Of a DNA stretch of 64,000 nt, positions 18,661-50,785 are shown piece after piece. This stretch comes from Chiloscyllium plagiosum. Taxonomy: Eukaryota. The notes under the pieces were generated by a model. That model made no database searches. It saw nothing but the letters and a program-made list of their open reading frames with translations, and was not told the origin of the DNA. The position numbers and the translations under genes are program-made. The stretch is taken from positions 5,100,220 to 5,164,219 of the forward strand of contig NC_057754.1 of NCBI RefSeq assembly GCF_004010195.1. Direction: 5' to 3'. Numbering within the stretch: the stretch's first letter is position 1; every line of letters starts with the position of its first letter.

Positions 18661-19939
18661 AATATTTTAAAATACCACAAAATAGAGTTAATTTGCAGAC
18701 AAAAGATCTTGCAATTTGAAACCATCAAAAAGGTTTGCTAACTCATCACATATTCTGCAGAAACAATGTCATCGCAAGAAAGGTCACTTTTCAAAGCATG
18801 AACCCTCTGTCACATTATCTAGTGTGGCTTTAATTCAGAAAAACATCATACACGTCATTTCATACTTTCCAATGTACCATTATGCGGTTTTATTTCTTTC
18901 AAAGGCATCAATCATTTTATTGTCCGATGAAAATACTCTTAGCAGCTAAAAGCAGTGTGAAAACCTCAAGGATTACAGTTTATATAGCTCATATTCAATC
19001 TCACATGGGGACACCTTTATGCTGTTTGAAGAACTGAGCAGCTGGACATGAGAAAGATTTCTACTCATAGATGATCAAACATGAATCTAAAGCAAATACA
19101 TTTTAAGAACTGCAACAAAAACCACAGCTGAGAGTCATCAAGATGATTGCCACTGTTTTAATTGACATTGGAGGCACTGAAGCTGGAATCAAATCCACTG
19201 GCAAGGTAAAACTGGAAAGATATGATGGGCAAACCTCTGTCCTAAAACTCTTCGTTTTCTCCAGAGACTACCATGGATTTCCAGAAATTTCTACAAGGCT
19301 ACCTTGGGTGAAAATCAGGGTGGTTTAACTGGCTGAGCTCAAGAGGCATATCGATATACTGATTCACGATGGCTCCTTTGCAGTCAACAGACCAGAGGGA
19401 GACTCCAACTACATACATTGGCTCGAACCCTCCACAAGGAGTAGTTTCAGTGCAGGGGCAAGTACAACAGAGCTTGAGGTTATCCAACTGCTCAACGGAT
19501 ATCTGCACTAAGAAGTAAAAGCTGACATTGCCAACATATCAGACACTCAGGGATACACAATCCCATCCGCAATGTTGAAATAAAATGGATGCTTTCATGC
19601 TAATCATCCCTTGATTAAGGCAGGGTGCCAGGGCAGTCACAAAGCATAATCACTGTCATAGACTTAGACTGTACTGGAAAAAGATGATAATGGTAGAAAG
19701 CTTGAATACCAGAAAAGAACCTAAAACATGTGGAATTTTCCATTTGAAACAACAACTCTTTGCCTCATAATGTTATGGAGAATGGAGAATAACCTAGTTC
19801 CTGTGCAGGTGAAGCTGTTTAGTCTAATTCAACTTGAATTTACCATACCAAGTTCCTGCTGACTAGTACTCATCCATCACTATGATGGAGATTTATCTCC
19901 AAAAACGTTTTAGTGTTTGAGGCATTTGTTTACAGTTTA

Positions 19940-21261
19940 TCCACCATCTTTCACTCAATTTATTCTCTGAGCTGTTGTAAATTCCTAACTATTGTTTGCT
20001 GGGGTTATGTAGGAATTGCAAGACAGCAAAACTGCTCAATATTTTACTGACTCATCTAGTCTGGATATGAAAACCTGTTACATCTCTGATAAACTAGCTG
20101 TAACAATAAGATCCAACTCAGCACTGTCTGCATGGAATCATAACATTGTCACATCTTTTGGTGGATACAAGGCAACAAATAAATTCTTATGAAAGTGTTG
20201 CTCATGTAAACAGGAACACAGACAGAAAGAAGAAACAAATTTAAAAAAAAAAATCAATATCTTCATCAGGAAGTATAAAGTGTAACATGATGTTTGCAAC
20301 CACAGTAATGAATGATTTGTTTGTGCACTTTACAACTGTAATACAAGATGTGCTTTCATGTTCTATACAAAACTGAAGTTTTGAAAATAACATCCTTTAG
20401 TGTATCGTCAGCATTGTGTAACAGAACCAAAATGGAAGCAATAATATATTACAGAAGAAAATAGCCTTAGAAGATAATACTTTCAACCATGTAAAGAATA
20501 GTCTGAAAATGACAACATTGAAATAGATATAGTCTTCATTAAAAATATGAATTAAAAAAAATTGTCCATCACATTCACCAAAATCCTGAATAAAATATGA
20601 ATAAATAAAACCATTCATTTGGATCCCTACACCAATTGCATAAACTAGGTACACAATGCAGAAAGTTGGGAAGCTTTTCTTCTTTCTGAAAACTTAATGT
20701 TCAATATTCATTTTTGTGGCTATTTCACACTGTAAAGATTAATCCTTATTGTGCGCAAGATCAAAAGGATGAATCTGTGATTTAAATGAACAGACAAGCA
20801 TTGTCATAAAAAGAGGATTTTTATCTCGTAATCAGAGACAGAATTGCAAGAACACCAAACCTTTACAGGAACAATAATTTCCACATCATGAGACAAAAAG
20901 GTGCAGTTTGGCTGGAAAGTGGGCATTAATTGGTGTAAGTGTTGCTATGGAGAGTGCTCCAAATATCCCCAAGCCTTTGTTTAAATTCAAACCAGGCAAG
21001 TCAATTGACATGTCAACCAATGAGCAACTTTCTCTCGTGTACCACAAATGATTGTTACCTTTGAAATCTGGTATGTACTCACATGATTCTTTTCTGAGGA
21101 GTGCAAGACAAAAGCTTCAACAGCATGTCTCTTTTTGCAGCAATGCTCAAGTTCTGTGTTACCAAGCGACACTTTGAACTGATGATAAATGCTAACATCA
21201 AACCTTTTCTCCTGTCACTGTCAGGTATTGCACTGTGCAGTGGACTAATCCCCCTTCTGAC
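19940..21261 (-). other. probable non-coding terminal exon / 3'UTR of the CENPF-like gene
   Basis: Acceptor gtgttccttacag|GTC at 21261; AT-rich sequence; AATAAA at 19964..19959, with another at 18921..18916. Confidence 0.5.
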
Positions 21262-21729
21262 CTGTAAGGAACACTGTATTCTTCAGGATGCTTCATACAA
21301 TACCCTGACAAGGACTTAGAGATAATCAATGATTTAGAGTGTGTTGCAAATGCAAAGGTGTGCATTAATGTACAAGTAACAAAAGGCCCAACACTTCAAT
21401 GAATTGTGCCACACCCACAAAACCTTCCTTTAAAAACAAAGGCTCAATAAATTAAATCAAGATCAAGTGAAGTAGCTTCAACATTAACAAACCCACCATT
21501 AACCCCAGCAGAGTCAAAAATTGTGCAACTTTAAATTCTGATCCAGTTCTCTCACAGGTAGACACACTGGACATCTGCATTCACCATTTAAAAATTCTAA
21601 ATATGTACATGTTTTTTTTTTTTAAAAACATTGATCAAGAACTATAAGTGGATTCCATTTTGTCTAGGAACATGAAGCATTCATCTGGAAACTTTCAACT
21701 GCTGCCAGTTAGGATTCATTGTTCTGTAC

Positions 21730-21875
21730 CTACTGCTCGTTGCTACCACCTAATGCCTTGAAGGCAGCAAGTACAGACTGCCCTTTTTTTTGTTGCTGGG
21801 GCCAAAGTGTAGTGTTTATAGTTGCTCGTCGCAAGACATGTGGGCAGGAAGGTCCAGAAGGGATATCTGCAAAAC
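21730..21875 (-). CDS. CENPF: CENPF-like coding exon 14 (GFADIPSGPSCPHVLRR...GGSNEQ*)
   Basis: tatttccag|GT TTT GCA GAT; ends CAG TAG|GTACAG. Confidence 0.88.
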
Positions 21876-24800
21876 CTGGAAATAGAAGAACTAACATCAG
21901 AACTCACAGGCAAAGTGCAGATTTAAAACAAATCACTGCCAACTCAGAGTCATAGCCACGCACCACGGAAATAGACTGGTCCAACCAATCCATGCCGACC
22001 AAGTTTCCCAAACACTGTAGAGATTCTATGAAATTAGTCCCACTTGGTCCATTTTTATTCTATTTCTTTTCTATTCATCCAAATGTCTTTTAAATGGTTT
22101 AACTGTACATGCAGCCAGCACTTCCTCTGGTAGTTCAGTCCACACACGAACCACCGCGTGTAAAAAAGATCCGCATGTCTTTTTAAAATTTTCTCCTCTC
22201 ACCTTAAAAGTATGTCCCCTAGTTATGAACCATATGAACCACTCTAGGAAAAAGACCCTTATACACGCCCCTCACCTGCGACAGGGTTAGGGTGAGAGTC
22301 TTACTGGAGTCAAATATTAATTCTAACCCTCTCCAACAGATGCTGCTAGATTCATAGAGTATCTTTAGCATTTTCAATGACTATTTTTTACATCTGGCAA
22401 TACCAAGTGTCAAAAGCACAAACATAATCACAGGACCAATAGAAGCCATTTCACTCGTTACACCTGCTGCAGTTTTTTCAAGCTAGTCCCATTCAGTCTT
22501 TGTTATCCCCATGGTCAAGCAACTTTATTGTCTTTTTGAAGTCTCCAATTCTATTTTAAAAGGTCAGGGGTGCCTTGCTAGATTTGCAAGGTGGTCCCAT
22601 CAAATTGCAAGTTGCAACTGTGATTGCAATTCAAACTCTTGAGCTTGGTTCCCATCTCTGAATTACAACAAATCCACAGGGTTTATTTTTCACAGAAACT
22701 ACATCCAACGAATAACTATAGCAAACTTTGTTTTAACTGGCACTCTTCATAAACCTGCAAAAATAATATACCTCAAATACCAGAAGTTTACTGCATTATC
22801 ACGATCTCAGAGTAGTCAGCTGAGGATGCGGGTGAGAAAGCTCTCTGCCAGTAAGTTTTATTTAAGGCAACGTTGCATTATGATATAAGTGATTTATATT
22901 GTAAATAAAACATAACAGTGATATATATACCCCTTATATTACGTTTCTATTACTTCGTGTGCGTTTTTAGTTACTACGTGGACTTTTTGCTCAAGTGGAA
23001 TATCTGATCAACTGATATACTTCTGGTCCCATTAAGTGCCAGTTAATAAAAAGCTTGCTGTATTTCTGTTATCTACTTTAGCAGCACTTGTGCAATTAGA
23101 GCTGAAGGGGTTTGGGCAGTTGTTTGGTTGTGTAGGGGTAGTTTTACTCTGTATCTACCCCCATGCTGAAGCTATCCTGGGAGAGTTCAAGAGATCATAA
23201 ATCATGAACCCTAAAGAGTTAACTGCATATTTATTTGAACAGAAGAGTACAGAAATAAGGTCATCAACCTACCCTTTTGCACCACATCGGGTAATCCATA
23301 TGGTTCATATTCTGTTTCGTCAAACGCTACAGACACATGATGCCTGAATAGCCAATTCCTCTGCAGTCTGGCAGCAAGCTCAGCAGTATTGATTTGCATC
23401 ACGAGCTCTGCAGGATTTAGTCTCACCAAGTATTCTTCAGGATTGGTGTGTCCCTTTGACCTGTGGCTGCTCTCTTTCTGGTTCCGCTCAGCTGCCGGAA
23501 TGGGGTCTCCACCAATCTGTCGTCCAGCATCTGGCTTCCTCTCTTCAGTTGAAGATTGTGCCTTCAAACGTGCAGCAGGCCACTGACCACTGGCCACAGT
23601 TTCAGATCTGCGTTCATGGAAGTGGTCCAGAGCTTTAGACAAGATCTTGTTGGCCACTTTTACCTCTTGGTCTTTGTTTTGTAAATCAGAGTAGCTGAGC
23701 AGATGGTTATCAATCTCTTCACTTTTCCCTTGAACAGTTTGTCTCAGAGCCTCCAGATTAGCACCAAGTTTGCATGCTATGATCTGCGCAGTATCTTACA
23801 GAAAAATCATGAAAAATAACATTAAAAAAATGCTTCTGGAGCGTGTTAAATCAGATATCTTTTTGCAGCTAAATCCCCAGCTTGACACAAAATTTGTTTT
23901 GATTTCTGTTCTGCTGTTGTTGGGCACTTTATCATTCTCATCACAAATGCTATAAATTCCTGCATGAAAATAAGTCCACACAGGCATTTATCAATTCACA
24001 AGTTTTACAAAGAAAGTTAGCGAGTTTTGAGAAGATTTGTAGCTCAGGTTGAGGTTCTGGATGTAGGTTTGCTCGCTGAGCTGGAAGGTTCATTTCCAGA
24101 TGTTTCGTCATCCTCTTAGGTAAAATCTTCAGTGGGCCTCAGGCGCAGCACTGTTCATAATTCCTGCTTTATATTTATATGTTTGGGTCTCTTTGGGTTG
24201 GTGTTGTCATTTCCTGTGTTTCCAACCAGAACTCTAACAACATACACATCGAGTTAGACCCCATCTACCACCCCTTGAGAAAAACAGGAAATGACATCAC
24301 CAACCCAAAGGAACCCAAACATATAAACAGAAAGCAGGAATCCTGTACAGTGCTTCGCCTGAGGCCCACTGAAGAGGTTACCTAGTAGGGTGACAAAACG
24401 TCTGGAAATGAACCTTCCAGCTCAGCGAGCAAACCTAAATTCGCAAAGAAGGTTATTGCCCTCTTTTATTGAAATTTCTCAAATGATTTCACATTCAATC
24501 AGTTTTGGACCACTCCAAAGTAAAACAGGAACAGAATGGGACAAACTGCAAGGCAAGAATCCCTTGCTGAAACTTTTCACATAAAAAATAACCCCAGTCT
24601 ATTCAGCCTCTCACTCTAGGGTTTGAGCTGTGGAGAGAAGCTGAATAGGCTGGGACTATTTTCCCTGAAGCGTTGGAGGATATGGGGTGACCTTTTTGAA
24701 GTTTATAAAATCATGAGGGGCACAAATAAGGTGAAGAGTCAAGGTCTTCCTCGCAGGGGGAGAGGAGTCCAAAACTAGAGGACATAGGTATAAGATTTAA

Positions 24801-27800
24801 AAAAGGACAGGGAGGGCAACTTTTTCACACAGAAGGTGGTGCATGTATAGAATGGAGCTGCCAGAGAAAGGGGTGGGGGCTGGTACAATTACAACATTCA
24901 AAAGGCATCTGGAGGGGTACAAGAAATGGAGGGTTTGGAGGGATCTGGGCCAAACACTGGCAAATGGGACTAAATTAATGTGGAACATCTGGTCGGTGCA
25001 AACAAGTTGGACCAAAGGATCTCTTTCAATGCTGTAAATCTCTATGACACTGACTTTATGATTGACAGCTAATTACTTTACGAAGCACAGAGCTAATGTG
25101 GGCAAGTGCTGCAGCTATGTTCAGCACTGGCAACAGTCACATGGTGGCTCAGTGGCTAGCACTGTTGCCTCACAGCGCCAGGGACCTGGGTTCCAGCCCC
25201 CCTCAGACGACTGCGTGGAGTTCGCATGTGCTCCCTGTGTCTGTGTGGGTTTCCTCCCACAGTCCGAAATTGTGCAAGTTAAGTGGATTGGCCATACTAA
25301 ATTACCTGCTGCGTTTATGGATGTGCAGGTTAGGTGCATTGACCATGGGGATGTACGGTTACAGGGATGGGTCTGGGTGGGATGCTTTTTGAAGGGTCAG
25401 TGGGGGTTGTTGGGCCAAATGGCCTTTTTCCCCAGACTGTAGGGATTCTATGGAAATAGTGGCTTCACTGTTTTTCAGTGACATTAGATGAGAATAAAAC
25501 TTGTCCAGCCACTGGGACAGTTACCATTCCAAATTTGCATAGTGTCATTGCCCCAGACCTCCCTCCAATCCCTGAACAGACAGGGCTTTGGTTTAATGTT
25601 GGAAAAACTGCACCTTTTATGATGATACACACTTGATACTGCGTCAAAGGTATTAAATTAGATTACATACTCAAGTTCTCATGGAGCAAAACCGTTACAG
25701 CTGACGCAAAACTGAACATTTAGTATCCAGAAAGCATCCAGTTATCAAGATGTACAATTGCATAACCTCTATAAATATAAACCTATCATAAATATAAATA
25801 TTTTGACTTTATATGCCATTAGAGAGAGGGGAAAAAAAAAGAAAAAAAACAACATTTACAGAAACTTGAGCTAAATCAATCGGAATGTAATTCAATACCT
25901 ATTCACCCATGTCAAATCTGACAATATTTGCCTCAGGAATGCAAAAATGAAAAGAGGATGCACTCCAGAAAATGGGAGATTTCAAAAGTTTTGGTCAAGA
26001 AGCTTTAGCCTCAGTTAAGAGATTGTTCTTAATCCATGAATCTGGTGAGTGGGAAGCTCTTATGCAATGAGATGACACAGGCAACAACATTCACCTGTTT
26101 CAACCAAATGAGTCTTCTCCCTCTGCTGACTCAGAATAGGAGGGTAACTGTAGTGGCCTAACCACAGCCATCAGCTAAAGTGAGTGAATGGGCCCAGAAC
26201 TAAAAGTAGGATCTGAATGCCTTCACAACACTATACCGAAATCACAGTAAGCCAGAGTTTAGATCAGAGTGGTGCTGGAAAAGCACATCAGGCAGGACCC
26301 TGATGAAGGGCTTTTGCCCGAAACGTCGATTTTCCTGCTCCTCGGATGCTGCCTGACCTGCTGTGCTTTTCCAGCACCACTCTGATCTAAACTCTGGGTT
26401 CTAGCATCTGCAGCCCTCATTTTTGCCACACAGTAATCCACTCGACCATTCAGAGTCAGAGTTGTACAGCACGAAAACAGACGCATCAGTCCAACTCGTC
26501 CGTGCTGATCAGATATCCTAAATTAATCCAGTCCCATTTGCCAGCATTTGGCCCATATCCCTCTAAACCCTTCCTACTCATGCACCTATCTAGATGCTTT
26601 TTAAATGTTGTAATTATACCAGCCTCCACCACTTCCCCTGGCAGCTCAATCCATACACATGCCACCCTCTGCTCGAAAAAGTTGCCCTTAGGTCCCTTTT
26701 ATATCTGTCACCTCTCACCTTAAACCAATGCCGTCTACGTTTGCCCCAACCCAGGGAAAAGACCTTGTTTATTCACTCAATCCATGCCCCTCATGATTTT
26801 ATAAAATTCTATAAAGGTCACCCCTCAACCTCCAGAGAAAATAGCCCAGCCTATTCAGCCTCTCCCTATACCTCAAACCCTCCAACTCTGGAAACATTCT
26901 TGTAGATCTTTTCTGAAGCCTTCAAGTCTGACAACGTCCTTTCTATAGTAGGGACACCAGAATTGCATGCAGTTTTCAAAAGACAAAAAATATATCCATC
27001 CATGTTTGAAACGTACAGAAGAGTGCTGCACTTTCAAAACTACGATCACTAACAGACAGAACAAAGAAAATTTACAGCCCAGAAACAGGCCCTTCAGCCC
27101 TCTAAGTCTGTGCCAATCCAAATCCATTGTCTAAACCTATCGCCCAATTTCTAAGCACCTGTATCCCTCTGCTCCCCATCCTCTCATGCATCTGTCCAGA
27201 TGCACCTTAAATTAATCTACCGTACCTGCCTCTACTACCTCTGCTGGCATCGCGTTCCAGGCACCTACCATCCTCTGTGTAAACTACTTTCTGTGTGTAT
27301 CCTCCTTGTACTTTTCTCCACTCACCTTGAACGCATGACCTCTCACCCTGAGAAAAAGCATATCTCTGTCTACCCTTCATGATTTTGTAGACCTCAATCA
27401 CTTTTTTTTCTAATGAAAACAATCCTAACCTAGTTAACCTCTCTTCACAACTAGTATCTTCCATACCACCTTCCTCTTAAACTTTCTCTGCACCCTCTCC
27501 AAAGCATCCACATCCTTTTGGTAATGTGGTGACCAGAACTTTACACAGTATTCTGAATGCGGCTGAACCAAAGTCTTGTACAATTTTAACGTAACTTGCC
27601 AGCTCTTATACTCAATACCCCGTCGATGAAGGCAAGCATACCATGTGACTTCTTGACCGCTCAATCCACCTGTGCAGCAACCTTCAGGGTACAATGGACC
27701 TGAACTCCCAGACCTCTCTGCTCATCAACTTTTCCCAAGTCTCTTCCATTTACAGTATGGTTTTCTCTAGAATTAACCTTCCAAACTACATCACCTCACA

Positions 27801-30800
27801 TTTGCCTGGATTGAACTCCATGAAGCATATAAGTCTCTCTAGAATTAGACCTTCCAAACTACATCACCTCACATTTGCCTGGATTGAACTCCATTTGCCA
27901 TTTCTCTGCCCAATTCTCCAGTCTATCTATATTCTCCTGTATTCTTTGACAGTTCTCTAGGCTTTCTGCTACTTCACCAATCTTCGTGTCATCTGCAAAC
28001 TTACTGATCAAATCACCAATGCCCTCTTCCAGATCATTTATGTATATCGCAAACAACAGTGGCCCTAGCACTGATCCCTGTGGAACACCACTGGTCACCT
28101 TTCTCCATTTCGAGAAACTCCCTTCAACTACTACTGTGTCCAGTTGTTCAAACAGTTTTTTTATCCACCTAGCTAGAACACCTGCACACCATGTGACTTC
28201 ACTTTCTCCATTATTTTACCATGGGAAAACTTATCAAACACCTTACCAAAGTCCACATATATGACTTCTACAGCCCTTCCTTCATGTATTAACTTGGTCA
28301 CTTCCTCAAAGAACTCTTATGATGGTAAGGCACGATTTCCCCCACACAAAACCATGTTGCCTATCACTGATAAACCCGTTATCTTTCAAAGATAAATAGA
28401 TCTTATCCCTCAGTATCTTCTTCAGCAACTTTCCCACCACTGATGTCAGGCTCACTGGTCTATAGTTACCTGGAATATCCCTACTACCCTTCTTGAACAG
28501 GGAGAACAACATTAGCAACTCTCCAGTCCTCCGACACTTCACCTGTGTTTAAGGATGCTACAAAGAAATCTGTCAGGGCCCCAGCTATTTCCTCTCTTGC
28601 CTCCCCCAGCAACCTGGGATAGATCCCATCCGGTCCTGGGGATTTGTCCACCTTTCATATCCTTTAGCCTACCCAACACATCCTCCCTCCTTATGTCAAC
28701 ATGATCCAGAGTAAACAATTTCTCTAATCTAAACATTCATCATGTCCCTCTCCTCAGTGAACACTGATGCAAAGTAATCCTTGAGAATCTCACCCATTTT
28801 CTCAGGTTCGACACACAACCTTGCTTCCCTACACTTTAGTGGACCAACCCTTTCTCTAGTTACCCTCTCGTTTCTTATATATGAGCAAAAGGCCTTGAGA
28901 TTCTCCTTAATTCTGCTCACTAAAGTTATTTCATGACCCCTTTTAGCCTGCTTGATTCCTCGTTTAAGATAGGTCTTACTCTCCCGATATCTCAAAAAAG
29001 CTATTTAAATGGTACCTTGTTGCTGACTGCCTTCTGGCAGGATGGTCTTGTGAAGACCATTTACCCGCAGAACTTCCTTGGGCACATCCTCTCTGACAGC
29101 AGAGTTTCTTTCCCACAGTTTCAACCTGGCACGCAGTTCCATATTTTCTTTGTTCAGCTCAACAACCCTTTTCTGCAGATGGTCAACCTGCAAATAACAT
29201 TCAAACAGGTGATGAAGGCATGCATATTTCAGGAGATTCGAGACTGGCTTGAGCACCAATTGCACTTGAACGGCTGTAATTTAAAGTGCCTTCGCACACT
29301 GTGCCAAATGCTAGCTTACCGATTATTTGCTCGGCTAAAATTCTGCACATCAGAAACATTTTTGATTGACAATGATGTCAGGGGGTACGGGCACATGCAG
29401 GGAAATAGAGTTCAAGCCATTTCAGATCAGAGGTGACCTGTCTAGAGGCTTGCAGGACAGACCGAGTGGTTTATGCCTGCTTTGGTTTTCTATTCACATT
29501 TTTGCTTGGATTTGAAACATGACTTTGAGAAGCCCAGACCGTGAAAAAAAAGTCTCCAGGTGTTGTGTGCAATCAGATTTTTTGCCCCAAGTGGCACAAC
29601 TGCTCGAGGTGCCAGTATGAAAGTGAGACAGACAAGAGTGCCATCAAATGCAGACCTTTGTCAAGTTCACAATGTTCAACAGTGGAGTTGAGCTGCTGAA
29701 CTATCTTCCTCTCCTTCACGTAGATATGATGTGGAGGTGTCAGTGTCGGGGTGGACAAGGTCAGAAGTCACAACACCAGGTTACAGTCCAAAAGGTTCAC
29801 CTGTAATCACATGCCTTCGGAGCACTGTGCTCCTCCTCGCTTCGCCTGCCGAGAGAACAGAGGCACAGAATCCACAGACAGAGCGACCAAAAGGTCACAC
29901 AAATGGTGTGAGTGGAGTGTTGACAGGCCAAACAACAAACCTTCGTAAAAGATCAAAAGCATAAGACCGCGTGAGCAAACCACTAACAGCTGAACAGAAG
30001 TGAAGGGACGACTTGTTAATGTCCGCCACCTTGAGCAGGGGATATACCTGTCTCTGTCTCTCTCTATGTCTCTCGGATGTTGCAAATGAACCCAAGATGG
30101 CAGACATTAACAAATCGTCCCTTCACTTGCTGTTCAGCTGTTTGCTCACGTGGTCGGACGCTTTTGATCGCTGTTCGGCCTGTCAACACCCCACTCACAC
30201 TACAAGTGCAACCTTTTGGTCTCTCTGCCTCTGGATTCTGTGCTTATGTGCTTCTCCTTGCTTCAGCTGGCGAGGGACTGGCGATCACAGAATTCCAACA
30301 GTGTGGAATCAGACCCTTTGCCAGCCCGCTGAAGAGTATCCCACCCAAACCCATTACCCTACCCTACTACTCTACATTTACCCCAACTAACACATCCCTG
30401 AACACTACGGGTAATTGAGCATGGTGAATCCACCCTCACCTGCTCATCTTTGGATTGTGGGAGGAAACCGGAGCACCCAGAGAAAACCCATGCAGACATG
30501 GGGAGAATGTCTGTGTGGAGTTCGCCCAGTCGCCCAAGGCTGGAATTGAACCCGGGTCCCTGACGCTGTGAGGCAACAGTGCTAACCACTGAGCCACCGT
30601 GCTGATCTGAGGGCCTTTGATTTCAGATGAACCTGTTGGACTGTAACCTGGTGTTGTGTGACTTCTGACCTTGTCCCTAATGTAGAGGCACTGATATGAG
30701 CCAGAACCTTACCTCCACGTTGCTAAATGGCTGAAATGTACAGCCTTTGGCACCCTTTTCCTGAAAAGATGGTGGATGCAGAATCTTTGAATATTTTTAA

Positions 30801-33800
30801 AGTCAAAAGGTAAATGGGTTCTTGATGAGCAAGGAAGGGGTGAGAAAGCTGGAAAGGTTATTGTAGACAGCTGGGAAGATGGAGCAATCAGATTAGCCAA
30901 AATCTGACAGAAACCAGAGCAGGTTCAAGGGACCAGCACAAGCAACACAAGTCACAATCCTGCAGCATTTCGCACCTTCAGGTAAAGGTAGGGGGAAAAG
31001 TGGAAAACACAGGGGAACCTCGATTATCCAAATACCAGATTATCCGAAGGAGATCTCGAGGTCCCAATAGAAACATTACATCAAAGATGTGTTTGCAACA
31101 GTGATCGCGTCTTTTGTTTACAGTGATTAAACAGATACCATCTCCAAATGACTGTCTGCCCACCCTCTCTCTCTCTCCCCCCACACTTTCCCTGGAGTTC
31201 TACAGAGGGGTGTACCCTTAAACCCCCCTTCACCACATAATCTCTCCAACATTGTCCTGTACAGGGCAAAGATAGAACCTGTCAAAAAGTTGCAGTAAAA
31301 AGTTGTGAGTGTGGCTGTAGCTGTGTGCGTGCGTGCACAGACTTACCCCACAGCAGCAGTCTTGTTGTTGGTATCCAGTTCAGCTGGCCCAGAGAGGGGA
31401 TGGGGCAGGGTGGGAGGGGAGTGGGGTTAGATGGGGTTGGGGGACAGGGGCAGGTGGGGGCAGGGGCAGGGTTGCCAGGGCGGAGGTGGGGTTGAGCGCG
31501 GGGCAGGCAGGGGCGAGGTTAGACGGGGTTCTGGAGGCGGTGTTGGGGATGGAGCTCACGTGCTTTGTGGCAGGGCGGGCGGTGCTGGGCTGGGTCTCAC
31601 GCATTGTGTGCTGTTGCAGTCTCCTGAACAGGGAGCAGACTTCTAAAAACTCCGAGCCCCCGAGGAAAGGCATTTAAAGCGATTAAGTGAATAATCAATT
31701 ATCTGAACGAAATAATGCCCGCCCAGCTCGTTCGGATAATCGAGGTTCCCCTGAATACAAAAGCATACAGCACCTGATTCTGGAGTGCAGACTTTTTAGA
31801 CTGGATTGTCTCCAATTCTTCGTGAAGCGGTTTCTGGGAATCCTTTGCAGTTTGAGCTATGTTTTTTAGGGTCTCATGTTCTTCTTCCAGTCGCTGGATC
31901 TGTTTGTTCACCTTGAGCACAGACTCCTGTAACGCACATGGTTCTCCCAGGCCACTTTCCTTCCGAGATTCCGAACCAGCACCATCTTCTAGAACCTTCT
32001 GCTTCCAATCTCGCAGAGCCTTCAACTCTTGCTTCAGGTGGTTCTTCTCTTCGGTACTTGCTCTGAGCCGGGCCTCACTGGACTGGATTGCGTTCATCAA
32101 GTCTTCTTTCTCAGACAGCTTGTCACCAGCTGTTTCCTGGGCTTCCTGAACTTCCAAATGAAGCTGCTCCTTTTCTTGTTCCAGTCTGGTACATTTTGAA
32201 CGCAAGAGATTTAATTCCTTGTTCAAGTCGCTGACCACTTGCTGGCTCAATTCCTTTGTCTCTTTGAGCTCCTCCTCTGAAACATGTAAGGCGTCAGTCA
32301 ACCTGCCTATTACCCTTTCCACTTCTTCAACCAGCTCTTCCTCCGTTCTCAATTCATCAACTGGCTTCTTTTCTTTAAAAGCAAGAACAAGCTTAGAGTC
32401 AGCAATTTCTGTTGTTCCCTCTTCAATTAGCGTTTCAGTTTCATCACAAAACTTCTTGATATGAAAGGCCAACAACTCCTTCTGCATTGAACCACTCGTC
32501 CCCTGAAGGCTGGTGGAATGCCGGGCAGCACTGCCATCATTTCTCTGCTCAGAATTCAGTTCGACGGGTTGCCCTTGGTTTTCAATATTCTGATTTACAG
32601 AACTAACTGTGGAGGGCACCTGTGTGCCAGAGGTCGGCTTTGCAGCTGGATCAGATCTTACCCTCTGTTCCCTCGGTACAGCCAACATAGGATTAAACAA
32701 GTTTTGACAACACAGTGTGTGCTGCTGTGCCTGTATTTCAGGATCCTCTTTCAGTTTCAATACATCAGAGGGCACCTTTGTTTCTTCACATTGGTCGTCC
32801 AGAGCCTGAGGAACAGCCTGCACTTTGGGGAGCAGAGTATCAAACACATTTTCACTGTAGCCGGGCTCAGAGTTTTGAACCATTCCATCAGCAGGCACCA
32901 TGGCGGCTTGTTCACCCAACCCCAAGTTTTGCACGGACAGCACGTTGCCACTTTCACTCTCGCTTGGATCGCCCTGAGGAAGCAACCCCTCACTGGTTTG
33001 CTCCAGCATGGCATCCCTTGATAAAGCTGCACTGTCAGCATACTTCTGTTTGGACTGCAAGGCCACCTTCAAGTTGGTTTTCAGCTCAAAGTTCTCCTTT
33101 TGAAGGCACGACAGAACACTGAAAGTATCTTGCAGGCGCCCATTCAAAACCTGAATGGTCTGGTCCTTCTCCTCCATGCTCAGGAGAAGACCCTCGATGT
33201 TCTTACTTTGGGTTTCCAATGCTACTGTCAACTGCTGCGTTTCCCTGTGAATTCTCGATTGTAGACTGTCAAAATTTTCCTGAGCTTGTCTTTTGGCTTT
33301 TTCTTCTTGCTCCTTCTCAGTGGTCAGTTCTTGACATTTTTTCTTAAGTTCATCTACTTGTTTCAAATGATCTAGTGACTGCTTGTCAAACTCAAGTTGC
33401 TCAGCAACTTTGTGCTTCAGTTGTTCCAGGAAGAGCTCTCGACCATCCTCCTCATAGCTCCTCTCGTTGCCCGCCTTGACGACTTCTACACAGAGATCTC
33501 TCTCCTCATTTAGTTTCTGTTCTAGCATTTCTCCCGAGTCACAGCCCAAATGGTTTGGTGATATCTTGTTAACCTCAAGGTTTTCAGCATCTTGGCTTTG
33601 TAGATTTTCCAAGGGAAGACCACTGCTCTCAGTAACAAACGTCCAACTACTTGCTTTTATGATCTCCTCAATGCAAGTCTTTTCACTGTTAAGATCCTCT
33701 ATCTGTTGTTCAAGCTGCTCTATCTTCTTAGAAGCAGCGTTTTGCAGGATCTGAATTTCATCTTCATTTGGTCTCATATGGCCATCAATGGATCTTGTTA

Positions 33801-36800
33801 GATGAGAGATTCTACTACACTCAAGCTCCAGCAACCTATTGGTCTCTTGCAGCCTTGCCACCTTGACTCTTTCGTGCTCCAGGTCTTTTTCCAGAGCACT
33901 GATCTGTCCCGCCTGCAAAGTAACCAGTGGAGTAGAGTGTTCAGTCTCTGCAGTGCGTTTTTGCGTTGCCTTCTTTAGCTTCCGTCTCAGCTCCACAATA
34001 GTCTGTTGATTTTTCTGGCCTTCGATCACTTTGCTATCAAGTGTTTGCTTCATATCATCCAGATCCTGCTGTAACATCTGCTTTTCAGACTTTACTGCAT
34101 CCAATTCCACCTCACATTCTCTTAGACGTAGAGAAACTGTAATTGGTTTATCAAGCAAGTCAATCATCCCCTCACCTTTCTCTACAGGCTCTCTGAGCAC
34201 AGCTGCATTTTCCATCCCATCCATTTCAAGTTCCTTAGTGGTCTCTTTGCTGACTTCCCGGAGTTGTGTTCCCACTTTCTCCTCAGGATCTGGGAGGACA
34301 TTCCTTGCTTCTTTCAAGCTTTGGGATTCGGTCGAAGTTCCTCTTTGCACAACTTCAGCTTTTATTTCAATGTTTAAATTTGGATCTTTTTCCAGATTGG
34401 TGCCACTATCTTGGTCCAAGCTAACAGATTTTGTTGCTAATTCTCCAAGTTGACTTCCTTCCTTCGAGTCCAACATTTCCTCTCCAGCTTTCAGCGACAA
34501 TCCCACAACCGCACCTGCGTTATCAGACCGCTCATCTTTTGACTGACTGTTCTCTTGCTCACCTATGTCACACTCATTGACCTCATTCCCATCACTTCTG
34601 TTTAACTTGCACATCTCTGGCGACAGATGCATGCTCCTACAGTCCGGTTGGAATGCATAATCCAGTTTCTTTTGAAGATCTTTAAGTTTGGATGCAAGAG
34701 CCACGTTCTCAGCTAAAATTAAAAACAAGATTCAACTTTGTTAAGTTGTAATGGTGATGTTAACTATGTACAGGGTCAGAAAAGCAAAAATCAGTGATCA
34801 TCATGCTCTGGACCAGACCAAAACCCATCAAAACATAGTTTTGAGATAACCATGCACGCTAACATTTAGCTTATTTAAAAGGCAAATGTAAGGCAGTGCA
34901 CTCCAGATGTGATCCGATTACGAGGCTTTAAGCGAAGTGTACCTTATTCTTATGCCACAGTTAAAATACAAACAGAAAAAAAAACTGGTGTGGCTTTAAT
35001 CTATTGAAATACTTAACAAAATACTATTTAACTACTACTCATCAAATGTTCCAATATCCCATAAGCAGCACCTCACAAACACACCCTTGGCAAAGGCAAA
35101 TTTAGCTAAACAAATTCCCTCACTTGCTATTTCCCTTAGTCCGGAAGAAGAAACACCAACAGAATGAACCTAGCAGCCAAGAGAAAACTCAACCTTTTGC
35201 AGCAGCAGAGAAAGACATGTACTTAGCAGCTTCAATTCCACAAAACCCCGACTTCAACAACCGAAAGCAAAACCCAAAACCCTGGGTCGTGTGAGCCTGA
35301 CTCCACCCACTCGTGTTCTGTAAAAAAAATATATCCAAGCTGTTTACTCTGCTCAATGGAGTAGACACCTCGGCACCAGACATACAATACCAACCTTCAA
35401 GAGAACCAGGATAGACAAATCCCTCTTAAATGCACATATCGTCACAGTTGCCAGCCCTTACCCTGCTGAGGCCAAAACACAAATGTTTTCAAGAAGGAGA
35501 CAGGTATCGTCTTTAGAGCTAAAGCCATCAAAGGGAAAGAGGCAAAAGCTGGAACAGGGTACTTAATTCGATGATCAACTAAGATCACACTGAATGGCAG
35601 TGCAGACATGAATGGGCAAATAGCCCACTCCTGTTCCTATTTTGTATGTTTCTTACTTCCATGGCACCATATACTGAAATCTGGGCCAAAAGCCCAAATG
35701 GTACAACAACTGAGCAGTGTCTCCATAGATTGACATTTCACAAGTGCATTGTTCATTGGTAAATATACAACTCATGATTCAGTCTACTACGATTGAAAGG
35801 CTGCTCACGTGCCATTTCCCAGTTTCTCCCTCTGACAAAAAGCTCACTCACACTGTGGACTCGGCTCCAGTCACACAAAGCCAGATACAGTCAGAGTGTT
35901 AATGAACAAGTGGATGCAAAACACAGACTGCTCAGCTCATACTCGTTCACAAAATCCACCCTCTTCTATTTCCAAATGATGGCAGTGGTCAAAACCTTCA
36001 GTGCCAGCACCCAGTGAGTAAGCTCCAATGAAAAGACCCAACTATTAAGCTAAATGGCTGTTATTTTACCAGTCATGTCGATTTGAAAGGCCAGGAGTTA
36101 ACACTCTTGAGTCACTGATAAGACTTATTTAATTTTACTGGGTACCAGACGACAATGAAAAGCTACAACCATTAAAGGCATTTTTTGAGTAACAGACTTA
36201 CATTTAGCTCTCTCTCTCAATTTCTGACACAGAGCCAGCTCTTTCTCCAACTTTTTCAGCTGTGCTTCCAGGTGCATGATTCTCTGAGTGCTTTGGTCGT
36301 GCCAGTCAGCAAAGCGGCCTTTTGCCTCCAGCGCTTCCTGAAAGATGGGCAAGAAAGTCACAAACAGAAAAGTGAATAAGATTACGGTGTTACTTTAGAA
36401 ACTGATGAAAACCTATAATAATCTTTATCCAGATATCCTAGAGGTTACAGAAACATTAGAGAAATTATGCGGCAGCACACAGAAATATGGAGATGTACAG
36501 CACGGTAACAAATCCTTCAGTCCAACTCATTCATGTCAACCAGATACCCTAAAATAATCTAGTCCCGTTTCCCAGCATTTGGTCCACATCCCTCTGAACC
36601 CTTCCTATTCATATACCCATCCAGATGCCTTTTAAATGTTGTACCAGCCTCCACCGCTTACTCACACACGCACCACTCTCTGTGTGAAAAGGTTGCTGCT
36701 TTTAAATCTTTCCCCTTTAACCTATACCCTCTAGTTTTGTCCCCTACCCTGGGGAAAAGACGTTGGTTATTCACCCTACCCATGCCTCTCATGATTTTAT

Positions 36801-39800
36801 AAACTTCTATAAAAGGTCACCCCCTCAACCTCCAAAGCTCCAGGCAAAATAGCCCTCAGCCTCTCCCTATAGCTCAAACTCTGGCAATATCATTGTAAAT
36901 CCTTTCTGCACCCTTTCAGTTTCAAATCTTTCCTACAGTGGGGAGACCAGAATTGCACAATATTCCAAAAACGACCTAAACAAATGTCTTGCACAGCTAC
37001 AACATGACCTCCCAACTCCTACATTCAATGGAATAGCTAACAAAAGCAAACATATGAAACACTTTCCTTGCTATGCTGTCTACCTGTGATACCACTTTCA
37101 ACGAACTGTAAATCTGCACTACGTCCTTGGATCAAATCTTGAAGGCTGCTGTCTTGCCAGGTCATTTCTGTATCTCCTTCCCACCTCACTTTCATCTGAT
37201 CCCTTGAACAATTTGTTGGGAACATAGGACAATTACACAAACGAGGACTTGAATTTAGGAGGTGGTGATTGGATTAATGTTTCATAACACCAAAGAGGAA
37301 CAGATAGAAGAGAAAGTATTTACACTGCCTGGAAAGCCTAGGAATACAGTACATAGTTTAAAAATCAGAGCCAGTCCTTTCAGGAGTGACCTTAAACAAC
37401 ATTCCTACTGCAAAGGGAGCAGGACTTTGGAACTCTCTACAATGATGTTTGGTGAACTTTTAATTTTCAACCGGAGATCGACGGATTTTCATAAACCATA
37501 GCAAATGAGGGCAAAGATAGATTAAAGTCACAGATCTACCTCCCTGGTGAGCAAGTGAATGAATAAATGAGCTTTATTGTCACACATATGCAACGATTAC
37601 AGTGAAAAGTTTATACGTCACCACTTACAGCACAATCTTCGGTTCAAAGGTACTCAGGTACAGCTTCTTTAGTTACAAGATCTTACAAAAGATCTTGTAA
37701 CTAAAGAAGACATAAAATGACCAGCATTGCAGAAATAAAAGTCTAGAACAGCGGCCTTCCAGCCCATACCACGCTGGCACCTAGCCTCCAGTCCACAATA
37801 GATCCCTGGCTCCTGACTGTGCCAAGCTTCACCTTGAGGATCATGAGGTTCGAAGATTGCTTCAGACCGCCAGATGGGCCAAGGATGCCACAGCAGGAGG
37901 CTGCTACACCAGGCAGGGAGGCCACCAAGGATGGCAGAGACCTATGGAAGTGATCTCGGGATAAAAGGATAAGCCACTTAAGACTGAGACGAGGAGAGGT
38001 CTCTTCACACAGAAGATGGTGAATCTTTGCAATTCTTTACCTCAGAGCTGTGGAACTCAATCAATCATGAAACATGCTCAAGACAGAAATCGACAGAATT
38101 CCGGAGACCGGCTACAAGGAATATCGGGATAGTGGCGTTGAAGTAGGTGAACAGCTACAATTTAAAGTGAATGGTGAAGCAGGTTTGACAGGCTGCGTAG
38201 CCTACTCTGGCTCCCATGTTACTCTGGATGGTGTAATTGATTCCAGGGCTTATTTGGTATATCCAGATCCCACATTCCAATAGCAGGAAACATGAGAAAT
38301 TAGATAAGTTGGAATTACCATTGAAAAGGCAGGTTTCTTAAACTATAGTAAGATCCGCAGTAAACATCACCTGGAGACTTTTCTGCAGAGTGTCCCCTTT
38401 TCTTTGGTAAGTCGCTAGTTCCTTTTCTGCACAGTGAAAGTTAGCTTTGACCTCCTCCAACTCTCTGTCCACCTGCTGTCTCTGTGCTGCCATCTGTCAG
38501 AAAAGAAGCAACATTCACTCACATGCTGACAAACGTAGAACCACCTAGCCGATAATATTTAACCAAAATCAGGACATCTACAAGAGTTGAGAAGCCTCAA
38601 GCACTTTCATCCAGATGATTTATCAACAAATTAAAATGAAAGCAGCAAACATTTATCTCGGAGATCTTGCTTCCTCTTAATGGACAGAACTCAGGTGATA
38701 CAAGGGGGACAAAAACAGGTGGCTGGCAGATTTCATAAAAATGAAGCCTCGGTTGGGATGGAGAGGCTGATCCAGTTCCAGACAAAGCTGTGCTCTCCAT
38801 TAAACGCCATTGAAGGATCACAGAAACCGTACAACAAAGAAACAGGTTACGTGAGTAATCTGGCCTATGCTGGTTCTTATAGTGTGCAACAGCCTCCCCT
38901 TGATGTCACCTCTTAACATTTAGTTGCTTTCTCTCGCCAACAAGCCCCTGTCTCAGCAGCTGCTATTCAACATTCCACGCGCTTGGAGGAGTCCAAATCG
39001 AATTACCCAAGAAACATGATACCACCCAGGACAAAGTGGCCCACTTGATTAGAACCCAAACCACCACCTTCAACACTCACTTCCTCCATCACAAACGCAC
39101 TGTCACCAGTGTGTACCAGCGACAAAGTGCACTGCATCAACTCACCCTTCAATAGCATCTCCTGAACCCGTGACCCTGACCACCTAGAAGGACAAGGGCA
39201 GCAGATCCATGGGAACACAAACATTTGCACATTTCCCTCCATCCCAACTCAGAAATATATTGGCAGCTCACTCAGTGCCATTGGATCAAGTCCCTGGACA
39301 TCCTTCCGAGCAGCACAGTCGGTGGGAGACCAACATTCCAAAGACAACTGTGGTTCCTTCCAAAAGGAAAGTGACCACCATCTTCTGGACAATAAATGCT
39401 GGCCTAGCATGTGAAATCTACATCCCACAAATTAATTTTAAAAACATTCCCTCACATCCATCTATGCTGTCTGTCTCAACTACTATGCATTATGGCAAGT
39501 TCCACAAACTTATCACTGTCTGGATAAAGTTTTCTCTGATGGACGCAACAGAATTTCTTGCCCACCCTCTTCTCAAACCCAGCAAAAGATACAATCACAA
39601 GTAAAGCAACCACCTTGATGGAAGTTCCTTCTGTTGATGAAGCTTCCACTTTAAAAGACAGGTTTGATTATAATTATAAAAAAAAAGTGACCCCAATAGT
39701 CAATGAAATTCCTTCTTTAACCCATTCAAGAATCAAGCTGGTCTGGAATGAAGGTGACGACCATATACAGAGGAACCTCGATTATCCATATATCAATTAT

Positions 39801-42800
39801 TCAAATATCGGATTAGCCGAAGGAGATCTCGAGGTACCGATAGAAACATTACACCAAAGAGCTGTTTCAATCCTGATCGCGTCTTTTGTTTACGGTGAGT
39901 AAAAACGATCTCGGCTCACTGAAATGCTACAGAAAACAGTCCTGGATTTCGATGGGGGCCCAGACACCATCTCCAAATGACTGACCTCCCACCCACTCTC
40001 CCTCTCCCCACACTTTCCCTAGAGTTCTACATAGGGGTGAACTCTAAACCGCACTTCCCCAGATAAGCTCTTTAACATTGCCCTATACAGGGCAGAGGTA
40101 GAACTTTTCAAAAAGTTGCAGTAAAAAGTTGTGTCTCTCTGTGCATGTGCGTGCATGCACGTACTATTTGGAGACTTACCCCACAAAGGCAGCAGCAGTC
40201 TTACTATTGGTGCCCACTCTGTCTGCCCCGGCAGCAGGGGCGCACAAGGGTTGGACAGTGGTGGTGGTGGTTGGGGGGGGGGGGGGGTGGAGAAAGGAGA
40301 CTCGTGCACGGTATGTTACTGTCCTCTCCTGAACGGGGAGGAAATTTAACAGAAAACTCTGAGTCTCAGAGGAGAGACATTGAATCAATTAACCAAATAA
40401 TCAATTATCCAAATGAAATAATGTCCGCCCATCTTGTTTGGATAATCAAGGTTCCCCTATAGAGGTTTACAAAATCACGAAGGGTATAGATAGGGTCAAT
40501 TGTAGCTGCCTTTTCCCTGTGGCAGAAGTGAGTACTGCAGATGCTGGAGATCAGAGTCAAGGTTAGAGTGGTGCTGGAAAAACATAGCAGGTCGGGCAGC
40601 ATCCGAGGAGTAGGGGAAAAAAAAAAATCGACGTTTCGGGCAAAAGCTCTTCATTATTCCACCTTTTCCCTGTGATGAGGGATTTTGAGGCTGGGAGCAT
40701 ATTGTTAAGGTGAGAGGAGAGATTTTAAAAAAGACTTGGGGGCAATTTTTTTTTAAAAAATCAGAGAGTGGTTTGTGCGTGGAATGAACTTCCTGAGGAA
40801 GTGGTGGATGCAGGTATAGTTACGATGTTTAAAATACACATGGATAAGTACATGAATATGGCCAGAAGCAGGCAGGTGGGACTAGTTCAGTTTGTGATTC
40901 TGTTCAGCATGGGCTGGCTGGGAAAAAGGATCTGTTTCCGTGCTGAATGACTCTATGGTGTATGTACGCTTTCAATTACATTTGGCTTCTCTTACTTTAT
41001 CCATTGTAGATTGTAAAGCCAGATGCTCGTTCTTGAGCTTCTGGATCTCCTGGTTTAGTTGGCTTTTCTCTTGCTTGCACTGATGTTCCAGATTACAATA
41101 TGCACGTTGCTGATCAGACAGCTCCTAACAAGTGGAGAGGAGAAAATTGCACATTCATCAGTTAATATCTCCACAATTAGTGCTGACTAATAGAATAGGT
41201 ATCGTGTATTGGGCACATTGCACTTTAATCATCTGATAAAGCAAAGTTGCCAATAGCAAATAGACTTCTACACTGGATTACTTATGAAGGTCAACAACAC
41301 CTCCTCATTGGCCTTACGCTACTGAGCCCATTCTGCCTCAAGAAACCTAAAAACTCAGGCTGGACAGCACGTGGGGCTCCAGAACTGTACTCTACATCTC
41401 TGGATTAGAATGGGAAACGAGCCCAGATACCTGCTCCCAACCACCATACAGGAAATAAAGTGTTGTTTAAGATCATCAGGCTTGGCTGTCTTGCACACAA
41501 TTTAACAGCCCACTTTCCACAGGAGAACCGCCGATGCCTGTGGTACTGGGCCTAGTCCCCAGACCAACCCTATTTAAATCGATTCTCACATCTCATGTGA
41601 ATTCATAAAGAATGAGGATGTCCAGATATTGGTTCACAAATTTAAAAACTGATATAAATGGATGAAAGGAAAGAGTGTGAGGTGGAGACAATTCCAATGC
41701 ACAGCAAGAGGGAGTGAGGTGATCGGCAATGAAAGGATGAAAGAAAGTATTTGTGCAGACTACTCTCCACTAATCTATTTATTCTAACCTGCTGGTGTTC
41801 TTTCTCTTTGTCCTTAAACTTCTGCTCCATCAGGCGTCGAGCACTTTCTGCATTCTGCCTCTGACAGCTCAGCTCCTCAGCAACCTGCTTCAGTTTCTGC
41901 TCTAGAATTGCACACTGGCAAGATAAAATAAAAAATGAATCACCAACTTCATTCTCCAATATGTCAGCCATTTAAGATAGTTAAAAAAAAAACATTTTCT
42001 GTAGTCAGTGCAAGAGAAATGTTTGTCATGGATAAGGAATACCCTTTCAATAAGGCACCATGACAAAAAAGAGAGGTTCCTTGACACCATCCTCATCAAA
42101 CACTCCCAGGGCAGGTACAGCACGAGGTTAGAAACAGTAAAGCTCCCTCTACTCTTATAAAACTGAAAGTAAAGCCCCATCCACACTGTTCCCATGAAAC
42201 ATTCCCAGAACATATACAGGACCGGGGCTGACAGAGTAAAGTTCCTTTTGTATTGTCCTATGAAACATTCCAACTGAATAAGCTATGTGCAGACGAGGAC
42301 TCTCTATACTTTTCAAAATTAAAGCAACACAATCCAACTTAAGGTGTGTCCACTAATGTGGAGAAAACGCTCATCCCATGGAGCGTAAACTAGTGCAGGC
42401 AACGGAGACGGAAGCCCAGAATTTAACCCTTTTCATCAGCCATTCAGTCTAACCCACTGCCTTTTATACTGTGCTCTAGCCTCCAATTATAAAGCAGCTC
42501 AGTTAAGTATAGCTCAATTCCCAAAGAGAGGTCAAACCTTGTTGTTGTTCTGCTCCTGCTGTATGTTTGCTCTCATTAGGTCATCTCTGCTCTTCACCAA
42601 AGCTTGTTCTTTCATCGCCAGCTCTGTTCTGGATTTCTCCAGGTGTGACTGCACTTCCTGCAACTTGTTCAGGTGATTTTTAATCTCTTTCTCTTGGGAG
42701 TGAACCCAAACCTCCAGCTCAGACATTGTACTCTGCAGCACTGCAACAAACAGTAGCAACCAAATAAAGCATCATTTTGCACACCACAAAAACAGCAGTT

Positions 42801-48800: not shown

Positions 48801-50752
48801 AAATTCCAGCTCTCTTTCTCAGACAGTAGATGCAAACAGTTTTTTCAGGGGTCAGAGAGCCTGCCATTGCACCTAGGGGGAAGTAGATTAGATTAGATTA
48901 GATTCCCTACAGTGTGGAAACAGGCCCTTCGGCCCAACAAGTCCACACCAACCCTCCAAAGAGCAACCCACCCAGACCCATTCCCCTACATTTACCCCTG
49001 ACTAATCCACCTAACACTACAGACAATTTAGCATGGCCAATTCAACCTGCACATCCCGCAGCACCCGGAGGAAACCCACGCAGACATGGGGAGAACATGC
49101 AAACTCCACAGACAGTCCAAGGCAGGAATTGAACCCGGGTCCCTGGCGTTGTGAGGCAGCAGTGCTAGCCATTGAGCCACCGTGCCGCCCTAATGCAAGT
49201 CTTATTGTTGTAAAGAAAGCATCTGATTCACCAATAACTGCCACCCTTACCTAATCTGACCTACATGTGACTCCAGACCCATAGTGATGAGTTGGACTCT
49301 GAACTGTTGGCCCACTCAGTTATGCCCACACCCCTTAATCTAACATAGCAGCAAATTACTGCAGGTGCTGGAATCTGTAAATATGGGTCCCTCCCAGAAG
49401 CCAAATTCAAATCACATCAACATTTAAAAGAAAACTCAAACACATCCAGGGTGGAAGCACCCTCATCATTCGGAATTGTTGCTCTCTCCACAGCTGCCAA
49501 CCAACCTTCTGGCCCCATTACATTTTCAGTTTTTATCACGATGATATTTTTTCCTGGTCAGATTAACACAATATGCTCCATGATTTTAGAAGGTGTGCAG
49601 AAATCAAGCAACTTGTAAACCTACAATAGTGAGTAGGGTAAAGTTTTCTCTTTAGTGTTTTACTGAGATCTGTCTAGATTAATTTTTTTAAAAATATAAA
49701 GCATCGATATTAAATTATCCTAGGCTATCCTAGAGCATTAAGACTGCACTATTTTCTAGGTCCATAGATTAAGGGACAAAGGTGGCCTTTAGTAGAACAG
49801 TGTGCTCTTCCTGTCAGATGTAGGAGATTAGGGAGAGTTTCCATTTTACTGATGATTATGTCTGCTGGAAGTGCGTTTGGTTGTGAATCCTATCCAATCG
49901 CATGGAGCAGGTGGAGCAGTAGTTGAAGGCAATGAGGAATTTACATGAGCCGGGAGTGGGATGTATGGCAGTTTCAGGAAGGGAGGTAAACTGCAGATCC
50001 AGTCATGTAAATGGGTTACCTCTAGGAAAAGTAGGAGAGGTAAGCAGGTACTGCAGGAGTCTCCTCCATTATCCCCATCTCAAACAAGTATACTATTTTG
50101 GAAAATGTAGGGGGTAATGGACTCTGAGGGGAATGTAGCACTGACAGCCATGTTTCTGGTACCAAGACAGGCTCTATTGTAGTGAGGGTGTGTCAGGTTC
50201 CAAGCAATTGATTGTATAGGGGATTGTGATAGGGCACAGACAGATGTTTTTGCAGCCAACAGCAAGACATCAGAATGGCGCATTGATGGTGCTAGGGTCA
50301 CGGAGATCTTTGGGAGGGTGCAGAATATTCTCAAAAGGGGCGAGTGACTAGCAAGAGGTTGTTGTACATGTTAGTACCAATGACACAAGAAGGGGAAGGG
50401 ACAAAATTCTGAGGAGAAATTAGGCAGATTAAAAAGTAGGTCCTTGAGGGTAGGAATATCTGGAATACTCCTGGTGTCATGTGCTAGTCAGACTAGCAAT
50501 AGTATCATAGAGCAGATGAATGGCTGAGGTGCTGGTGTACAGGGACAAGGGCAGGGGGAGCACCCAAAGTGATAACAAGAAAAGAGCTTAGTCCGAGGTT
50601 AGTACAGTTGAAAAGATGAGCAAGTCAAAGCAGGCAAGAGAAAGGTAAAGAACGAGGTAAGATTGATATATTAAACTGCATTTATTTCAATGCAAGAGGC
50701 CTGACAGGTACAGATGATGAACTCAGGGCATAGTTGGGAACACGGGACTGGG

Positions 50753-50785
<33 letters not shown>

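Follow-up and report, generated by a model that had tools for sequence, protein, structure and literature searches.

The window analysed here, a stretch of 64,000 nucleotides from Chiloscyllium plagiosum, contains a minus-strand gene with 14 coding exons that spans positions 21730..58538 and encodes a protein of 1791 aa. The region singled out in a preliminary description of this DNA corresponds to the last two coding exons. With exon 13 as the query, a homology search recovered a protein of 1791 aa from the same species that is 100% identical and bears the name 'centromere protein F-like' (P0003), together with 13 further relatives from sharks and rays, and the chain of exons joined at GT-AG sites equals P0003 letter for letter. 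Coding exons 1-5 (58538-58377, 55059-54863, 51551-51436, 48252-48161 and 45897-45585, all on the minus strand, as are the exons that follow) encode the CENP-F N-terminal domain (aa 1-293), exons 6-10 (36202..42740) a conserved coiled coil (aa 294-532), exon 11 (31774..34712, 2939 nt) a divergent coiled-coil rod (aa 533-1512), and exon 12 (29016..29187) aa 1513-1569. Exon 13 (23273..23794; 522 nt, phase 1-1) covers aa 1570-1743 and holds a decayed Bub1-binding helix, a linker free of nuclear localization signal (NLS) clusters, a clade-specific segment and the first half of the Miro motif. The last coding exon (21730..21875, aa 1744-1791) begins with Gly1744 and Phe1745 (21873-21871), continues through Asp1747, a Cys-Pro pair and the VLR strand (21837-21829), and ends with a short tail and a stop codon, without a CAAX end.

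The Miro-binding sequence is thus interrupted, between EYEPYGLPDVVQK and GFADIPSG, by a phase-1 GT-AG intron (23272..21876). The joint between exon 13 and the last exon is present in assembled contigs from two runs belonging to two studies, and the splice between exons 12 and 13 in contigs of runs X1 and X3, all of these runs being putatively RNA; both terminal introns are skipped in these contigs exactly at the GT-AG sites. The same spliced contigs cover a 3' UTR of at least 2.2 kb (19500..21729, minus strand), and candidate AATAAA/ATTAAA signals lie at 19964, 19162, 18921, 18894 and 18834. Zero depth at exon 13 was found in two single-cell raw-read runs, of which about 2% and about 6% were read, a sample that is uninformative on tissue. 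The intact 14-exon chain, the spliced contigs and the presence of the gene across 16 elasmobranch records rule out a pseudogene or a mis-read frame. Exon 13 is symmetric in phase. A predicted newt isoform (P0148) lacks the corresponding region, and its motif begins at GFADIP; no skip of exon 13 appears among the joints shown for two shark contigs. Intron 12 contains fragments of high-copy repeats (23800-28800), among them a frame at 27975-27889 that resembles a remnant of a LINE reverse transcriptase. The interval 63001-64000 has a GC content of 55-57% and an observed/expected CpG ratio of up to 1.16, and it may contain a CpG-island promoter, which would lie some 5 kb upstream of the start codon.

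Judged by its sequence, the gene is a CENP-F family member distinct from the canonical orthologue and coexists with a full CENP-F in the same species. A search with the tail of catshark CENP-F recovered 21 full-type cartilaginous-fish records, including P0315, the canonical CENP-F of the bamboo shark C. plagiosum, which is 3277 aa long, ends in CKVQ (a CAAX end) and lies on a record of 105.9 Mb; the paralog gene lies on a separate record of 13.7 Mb. The presence of this full-length protein rules out that the gene is a shortened shark CENP-F orthologue. Canonical CENP-F, also known as mitosin or LEK1 (P0315, P0121), shares with the paralog the PF10481 domain, the first 560 aa, a long coiled-coil rod and the PF10490 motif, but it measures 3000-3400 aa as against 1791 aa, falls into a separate clade and resides on a separate chromosome-scale record.

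The paralog is not confined to sharks and rays. We searched 50%-identity representatives with aa 1-405 (best 150 of 257 matches listed) and looked up the names of 30 of these representatives. Short proteins bearing the C-terminal signature of the paralog occur in sturgeon, reedfish, teleosts, newt, axolotl, caecilian, two turtles and one lizard, and the best BLAST match assigns to it N-terminal fragments of three other lizards and of a chimaera; the turtle and lizard members are placed in the paralog clade by similarity, not by tree. Among the teleost members, UniRef names the Cyprinus and Paramormyrops proteins si:dkeyp-115e12.6, and the entries under this name or 'centromere protein F-like' are of the same clade with the same C-terminal signature, their names being automatic annotations only. 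No mammal, bird, frog or crocodilian paralog was found among the named matches (best 120 of 368 and best 150 of 257 listed, most representatives being nameless). A functional or evolutionary description of the paralog was not found in the literature within our scope, which excluded subscription journals and supplements.

For a careful phylogeny we used the first 540 aa of 22 chosen rows under LG+G4 with a lamprey root, leaving out the turtle and lizard paralogs, which are too short or too divergent. The paralog clade is supported at 100/99 and the canonical clade at 100/98, P0315 occupies the position of the orthologue, and each clade includes cartilaginous fishes, ray-finned fishes and amphibians. 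Because both clades hold these three groups, the duplication is shown by this tree to predate the split between cartilaginous and bony vertebrates. A duplication limited to sharks can be dismissed, since a clade of all cartilaginous-fish copies is rejected with p-AU of 2.3e-6. When a crinoid was included in a quick tree, support for the paralog clade was just 49 and the lamprey fell beside the canonical group at 86, so that the duplication may have preceded or followed the divergence of lampreys.

The downstream neighbour of the paralog is an RBM4/RBM4B-like gene on the minus strand (5460-9994) with two RRMs, a CCHC knuckle and a Tyr/Ala-rich tail, whose best solved match is RNA-binding protein 30 (E=3.7e-32) and which constitutes a useful synteny marker. 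Scanning 165 flanking open frames against Pfam yielded nothing beyond the RBM4-like exons and one sub-threshold match. We take RBM4 to lie at human 11q13 and the 11q13 block to be a paralogue of the 1q41 region that holds CENPF, and this presumed paralogy together with the single RBM4-like neighbour points to a possible origin of the two copies in whole-genome duplication (2R).

Database names can mislead: the paralogs P0168, P0171, P0197, P0198 and P0274 bear the bare name 'centromere protein F', and P0315, the true orthologue, carries the name 'centromere protein F-like', so that orthology based on names is unreliable. The N-terminal domain is also carried by invertebrate proteins, namely the crinoid P0186, the spider P0201, P0166 and P0185; the crinoid protein, 3169 aa long, ends in CKIQ, and neither a GFADIP motif nor the Cys helix was found in it.

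Two parts of CENP-F are retained in the paralog. At the N terminus, PF10481 matches over the whole profile (E=4.5e-82, 276.6 bits), the match extending to aa 312. Relative to P0124, a 3114-aa protein that we use as the reference for numbering and whose spacing and C-terminal end equal those of P0121, a named human isoform, there are 78/130 identities over aa 1-130 and 80/159 over aa 291-450. BLASTP against aa 1-560 of the shark's own canonical CENP-F gives 43% identity. In the reptile members clear similarity is confined to about the first 135 aa.

The second retained part is the C-terminal motif, which corresponds to Pfam CENP-F_C_Rb_bdg (PF10490; aa 1726-1767) with E=5e-20 and is therefore not due to chance. 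All published Miro-contact elements are kept, namely G1744, F1745, D1747 and VLR. In CENP-F, G2988A or F2989A abolishes Miro binding according to PMC6428352, the report that also describes the Miro-binding domain as heavily phosphorylated, and D2991 and the ILR strand are listed among the contacts with Miro in PMC10897228. The high conservation of the motif and the essential role of its Phe, both stated in the preliminary description, hold. GFADIP, then Cys-Pro and then (V/I)(L/V)RR are found in 39/39 paralog records, with 19 columns of this region identical throughout. These 39 were chosen for a complete C terminus, and at least seven further records of the paralog type stop short of the motif; it is kept even in reptile records of 536-924 aa. 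Upstream of GFADIP lies SVAFDETEYEPYGLPDVVQK (23274..23333, minus strand), which comprises a paralog-specific SxA(F/Y)D lead-in and the conserved GLP-x-VV helix of the Miro-binding domain. The site of the Cys-Pro pair is Ser-Pro (2998-2999) in canonical copies, as seen in 53/54 mammal, 12/12 bird, 12/12 shark and 9/9 ray-finned records. For the C-terminal isoform P0016 no matching solved structure was found.

Most other named features of the canonical protein, which has the PF10473 zipper, an intact Bub1 helix, NLS clusters, the CAAX end and the Ser-Pro, are absent or decayed in the paralog. The preliminary description had noted Ser, encoded by TCT at 23690..23688 (minus strand), in place of a human Cys, and the alignment agrees: Ser1605, within EIDNHLLSYSDL, falls opposite the Cys of EADEYLDKYCSL, which is residue 2865 in the 3114-aa numbering. 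The register at this position can be relied on: we built a profile of the Bub1-binding helix (human 2826-2894) from 102 bony-vertebrate records, and the collinear paralog of Heptranchias matches it over its full length with 30.3 bits. Canonical cartilaginous-fish copies score 49.5-70.7 bits on this profile (18/18, the 18 being the 21 full-type records minus three redundant isoforms), as against 4.6 for the shark paralog P0003, 0-30.3 for elasmobranch paralogs and at most 7.3 for all other paralogs. A recognisable remnant is thus present in shark paralogs, and the helix is undetectable in those of ray-finned fishes and reptiles; identities to P0124 number 12/55 for the paralog versus 28/55 for the shark's canonical copy. 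The stated importance of the Cys is sound in so far as the equivalent change C2961S at least partly impairs BUB1 binding (Ciossani 2018, PMC6028960). As a decisive sign, however, the Cys-to-Ser change fails. The column is Cys in 102/107 bony-vertebrate records, the remaining five of which end early, but among the 18 cartilaginous-fish orthologues it is Trp in 16 (including P0315), Cys in one and Tyr in one, so that a missing Cys is little informative in a shark and decay of the whole helix is the better sign. The Trp replaces the Cys while the rest of the canonical cartilaginous-fish helix is well kept; a Trp at a Cys described as essential for the kinetochore bears on whether Bub1 binding depends on chemistry or on packing.

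The leucine zipper PF10473 (Nup133 region), which is listed for 21/21 canonical cartilaginous-fish records, had no match in 4/4 paralog proteins scanned. The preliminary description was also right that no basic clusters follow the Ser: a K[KR]x[KR] cluster, admittedly a crude pattern test, does not occur in the last 300 aa of P0003, and in that interval it occurs in 1/39 paralogs versus 111/119 canonical proteins. The NLS role that it gave to these clusters agrees with the assignment of the bipartite NLS of human CENP-F to residues 2917-2959 (PMC12216719). Basic runs persist in the rod at aa 176 and aa 775, so another NLS is possible. Where canonical CENP-F has its second basic NLS cluster, the paralog carries INTAELAARLQRNWLFRHH (23337..23393, minus strand), a segment of the PAxLAxRIxRNR type. 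It had earlier been picked out as a distinct segment of this protein, which is real but not specific to the shark; it is clade-wide, the full clade signature being PAxLAxRIxRNR..SxA(F/Y)D. The tail beyond the Miro motif measures 24-30 aa in paralogs versus 109-121 aa in canonical copies. That of P0003 is 30 aa long and ends in SNEQ, as compared with the canonical end CxVQ, and the C-terminal microtubule-binding tail is gone; a Cxxx end is found in 1/39 paralogs versus 112/119 canonical proteins.

The Miro motif has in turn decayed in some canonical copies. The canonical G-F-x-D-(I/L)-P is kept in 75/76 mammal, bird, crocodilian and frog records, and it is decayed in 5/5 rays and skates, 9/9 lizards and the chimaera record. 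Hypanus, Mobula, Narcine, Amblyraja and Elgaria each provide a same-species pair with a decayed canonical motif and an intact one in the paralog. The paralog record of the chimaera is fragmentary and lacks the C terminus. In sharks, ray-finned fishes, salamanders and turtles both copies have the motif. Counted by lineage the comparison is 3/7 versus 0/4 (Fisher p=0.21, from predicted gene models), and the pattern is no more than suggestive of a transfer of Miro binding to the paralog in some lineages. The lizard canonical proteins (P0051, P0058, P0069, P0071, P0080, P0102, P0104, P0125 and P0143) lack K[KR]x[KR] in 8/9 cases and keep a Cxxx end in 9/9.

We consider it rather probable that the paralog acts as a non-kinetochore, largely cytoplasmic Miro adaptor on mitochondria. 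This second CENP-F copy arose by duplication before the split of cartilaginous and bony vertebrates, and its C-terminal G-F-A-D-I-P...(V/I)LR, to judge from the complete conservation of the motif, would dock in the ELF pocket and the GTPase-1 sheet of Miro. At the other end of the rod the N-terminal CENP-F domain may grip microtubules or microtubule-bound partners. The features for Bub1, Nup133, nuclear import, the C-terminal microtubule tail and farnesylation are lost from the sequence, and the corresponding functions would presumably be lost with them. With Cys-Pro instead of Ser-Pro beside the Miro-binding Phe, binding is probably not switched at this site by mitotic kinases, and in some lineages Miro binding may have passed from canonical CENP-F to the paralog. 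The earlier proposal of a CENP-F derivative that has the Miro motif and lacks kinetochore and nuclear features is strengthened by the paralogy, the invariant Miro motif and the decayed or absent helix, but its microtubule-adaptor part calls for caution, as the C-terminal site is missing. This site is sufficient for tip tracking by CENP-F, and beads bearing an N-terminal fragment followed growth in just 7% of cases (Kanfer 2017, PMC5576903). Since the paralog lacks it, any microtubule coupling must use the N terminus.

The N terminus could also serve a different end. Mouse exons 1-5 are reported to hold the sites for syntaxin 4, Hook2 and SNAP25 (PMC3380710), this is the region best kept in the paralog, and the confinement of clear reptile similarity to about 135 residues and the loss of the C-terminal microtubule site likewise suit a protein that tethers Miro to vesicles or the centrosome through one of these partners and does not couple to microtubules directly. 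We nevertheless regard such a tether as unlikely, given that this N terminus has been demonstrated to bind microtubules and to follow their shortening ends under load (PMC4477864). It is slightly less likely still that the paralog remains mitotic, with expression in G2/M and recruitment to the kinetochore or spindle through the residual Bub1 helix or through pairing of its N-terminal coiled coil with canonical CENP-F. Sharks do keep the helix remnant, the Cys is dispensable in shark canonical copies, C2961S impaired BUB1 binding only partly (PMC6028960), and si:dkeyp-115e12.6 is listed in a G2/M gene module, which is a preset scoring list, in the only paper found to name this zebrafish gene (PMC12891946). 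Against this, the helix cannot be detected in the paralogs of ray-finned fishes or in those of reptiles. As to the module, its genes are presumably those of the standard human G2/M list transferred by orthology, and a preset list of this kind is therefore not evidence of expression.

The conserved motif itself might serve a partner other than Miro, such as the Rb-family proteins after which the Pfam domain is named. It overlaps a reported RB-binding sequence, and the invariant SxAxD, Tyr and Cys are unexplained by known Miro contacts. Yet in the Peterka paper (PMC6428352) a two-hybrid interaction with RB went undetected, the mutations G2988A and F2989A abolish binding to Miro, and the loss of the NLS clusters fits a nuclear partner poorly, which leaves this explanation very improbable.

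As a Miro adaptor, the paralog would resemble the known clients of the ELF pocket (TRAK1/2, MYO19, MTFR1/2/1L and VPS13D), in which a conserved Phe or Leu, with a Gly before it, stands beside an acidic residue and is followed by a downstream trans-strand (PMC10897228); the paralog has the same sequence arrangement in G1744, F1745, D1747 and VLR. The pocket residue of TRAK1 comes after a helix and an upstream dimer strand (PMC12227652), and the invariant SxA(F/Y)D of the paralog appears to sit at a similar distance upstream. The proposed likeness is one of function only and extends neither to a motor domain nor to homology. Within the paralog clade, the ray-finned members of the si:dkeyp-115e12.6 type lack the Bub1-helix remnant kept by sharks.

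A broader reading, possible but on balance doubtful, is that jawed vertebrates divided the tasks of CENP-F, with the paralog as a dedicated, cell-cycle-independent Miro adaptor for the positioning of mitochondria. It would be the sole Miro-binding CENP-F of rays, skates, lizards and possibly chimaeras, and where it was lost, as seems to be so in mammals, birds and frogs, one multifunctional protein would remain. The paralog may represent a natural separation-of-function allele, in which the N-terminal domain and the Miro motif are kept and little more. A mouse carrying F2872A is reportedly free of symptoms, which leaves the purpose of the Miro-CENP-F link unanswered, and if our reading is true the zebrafish si:dkeyp-115e12.6 offers a ready test of that purpose; fish cenpf models may be buffered by the second gene. 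The tetrapod paralogs P0148, P0152, P0156, P0187, P0197, P0198 and P0281 all end in Val (7/7), preceded at a distance of two residues by Ser or Thr (SSV, SGV, TSV or TGV), an end that is absent from the shark members and that we take to resemble a class I PDZ-binding end.
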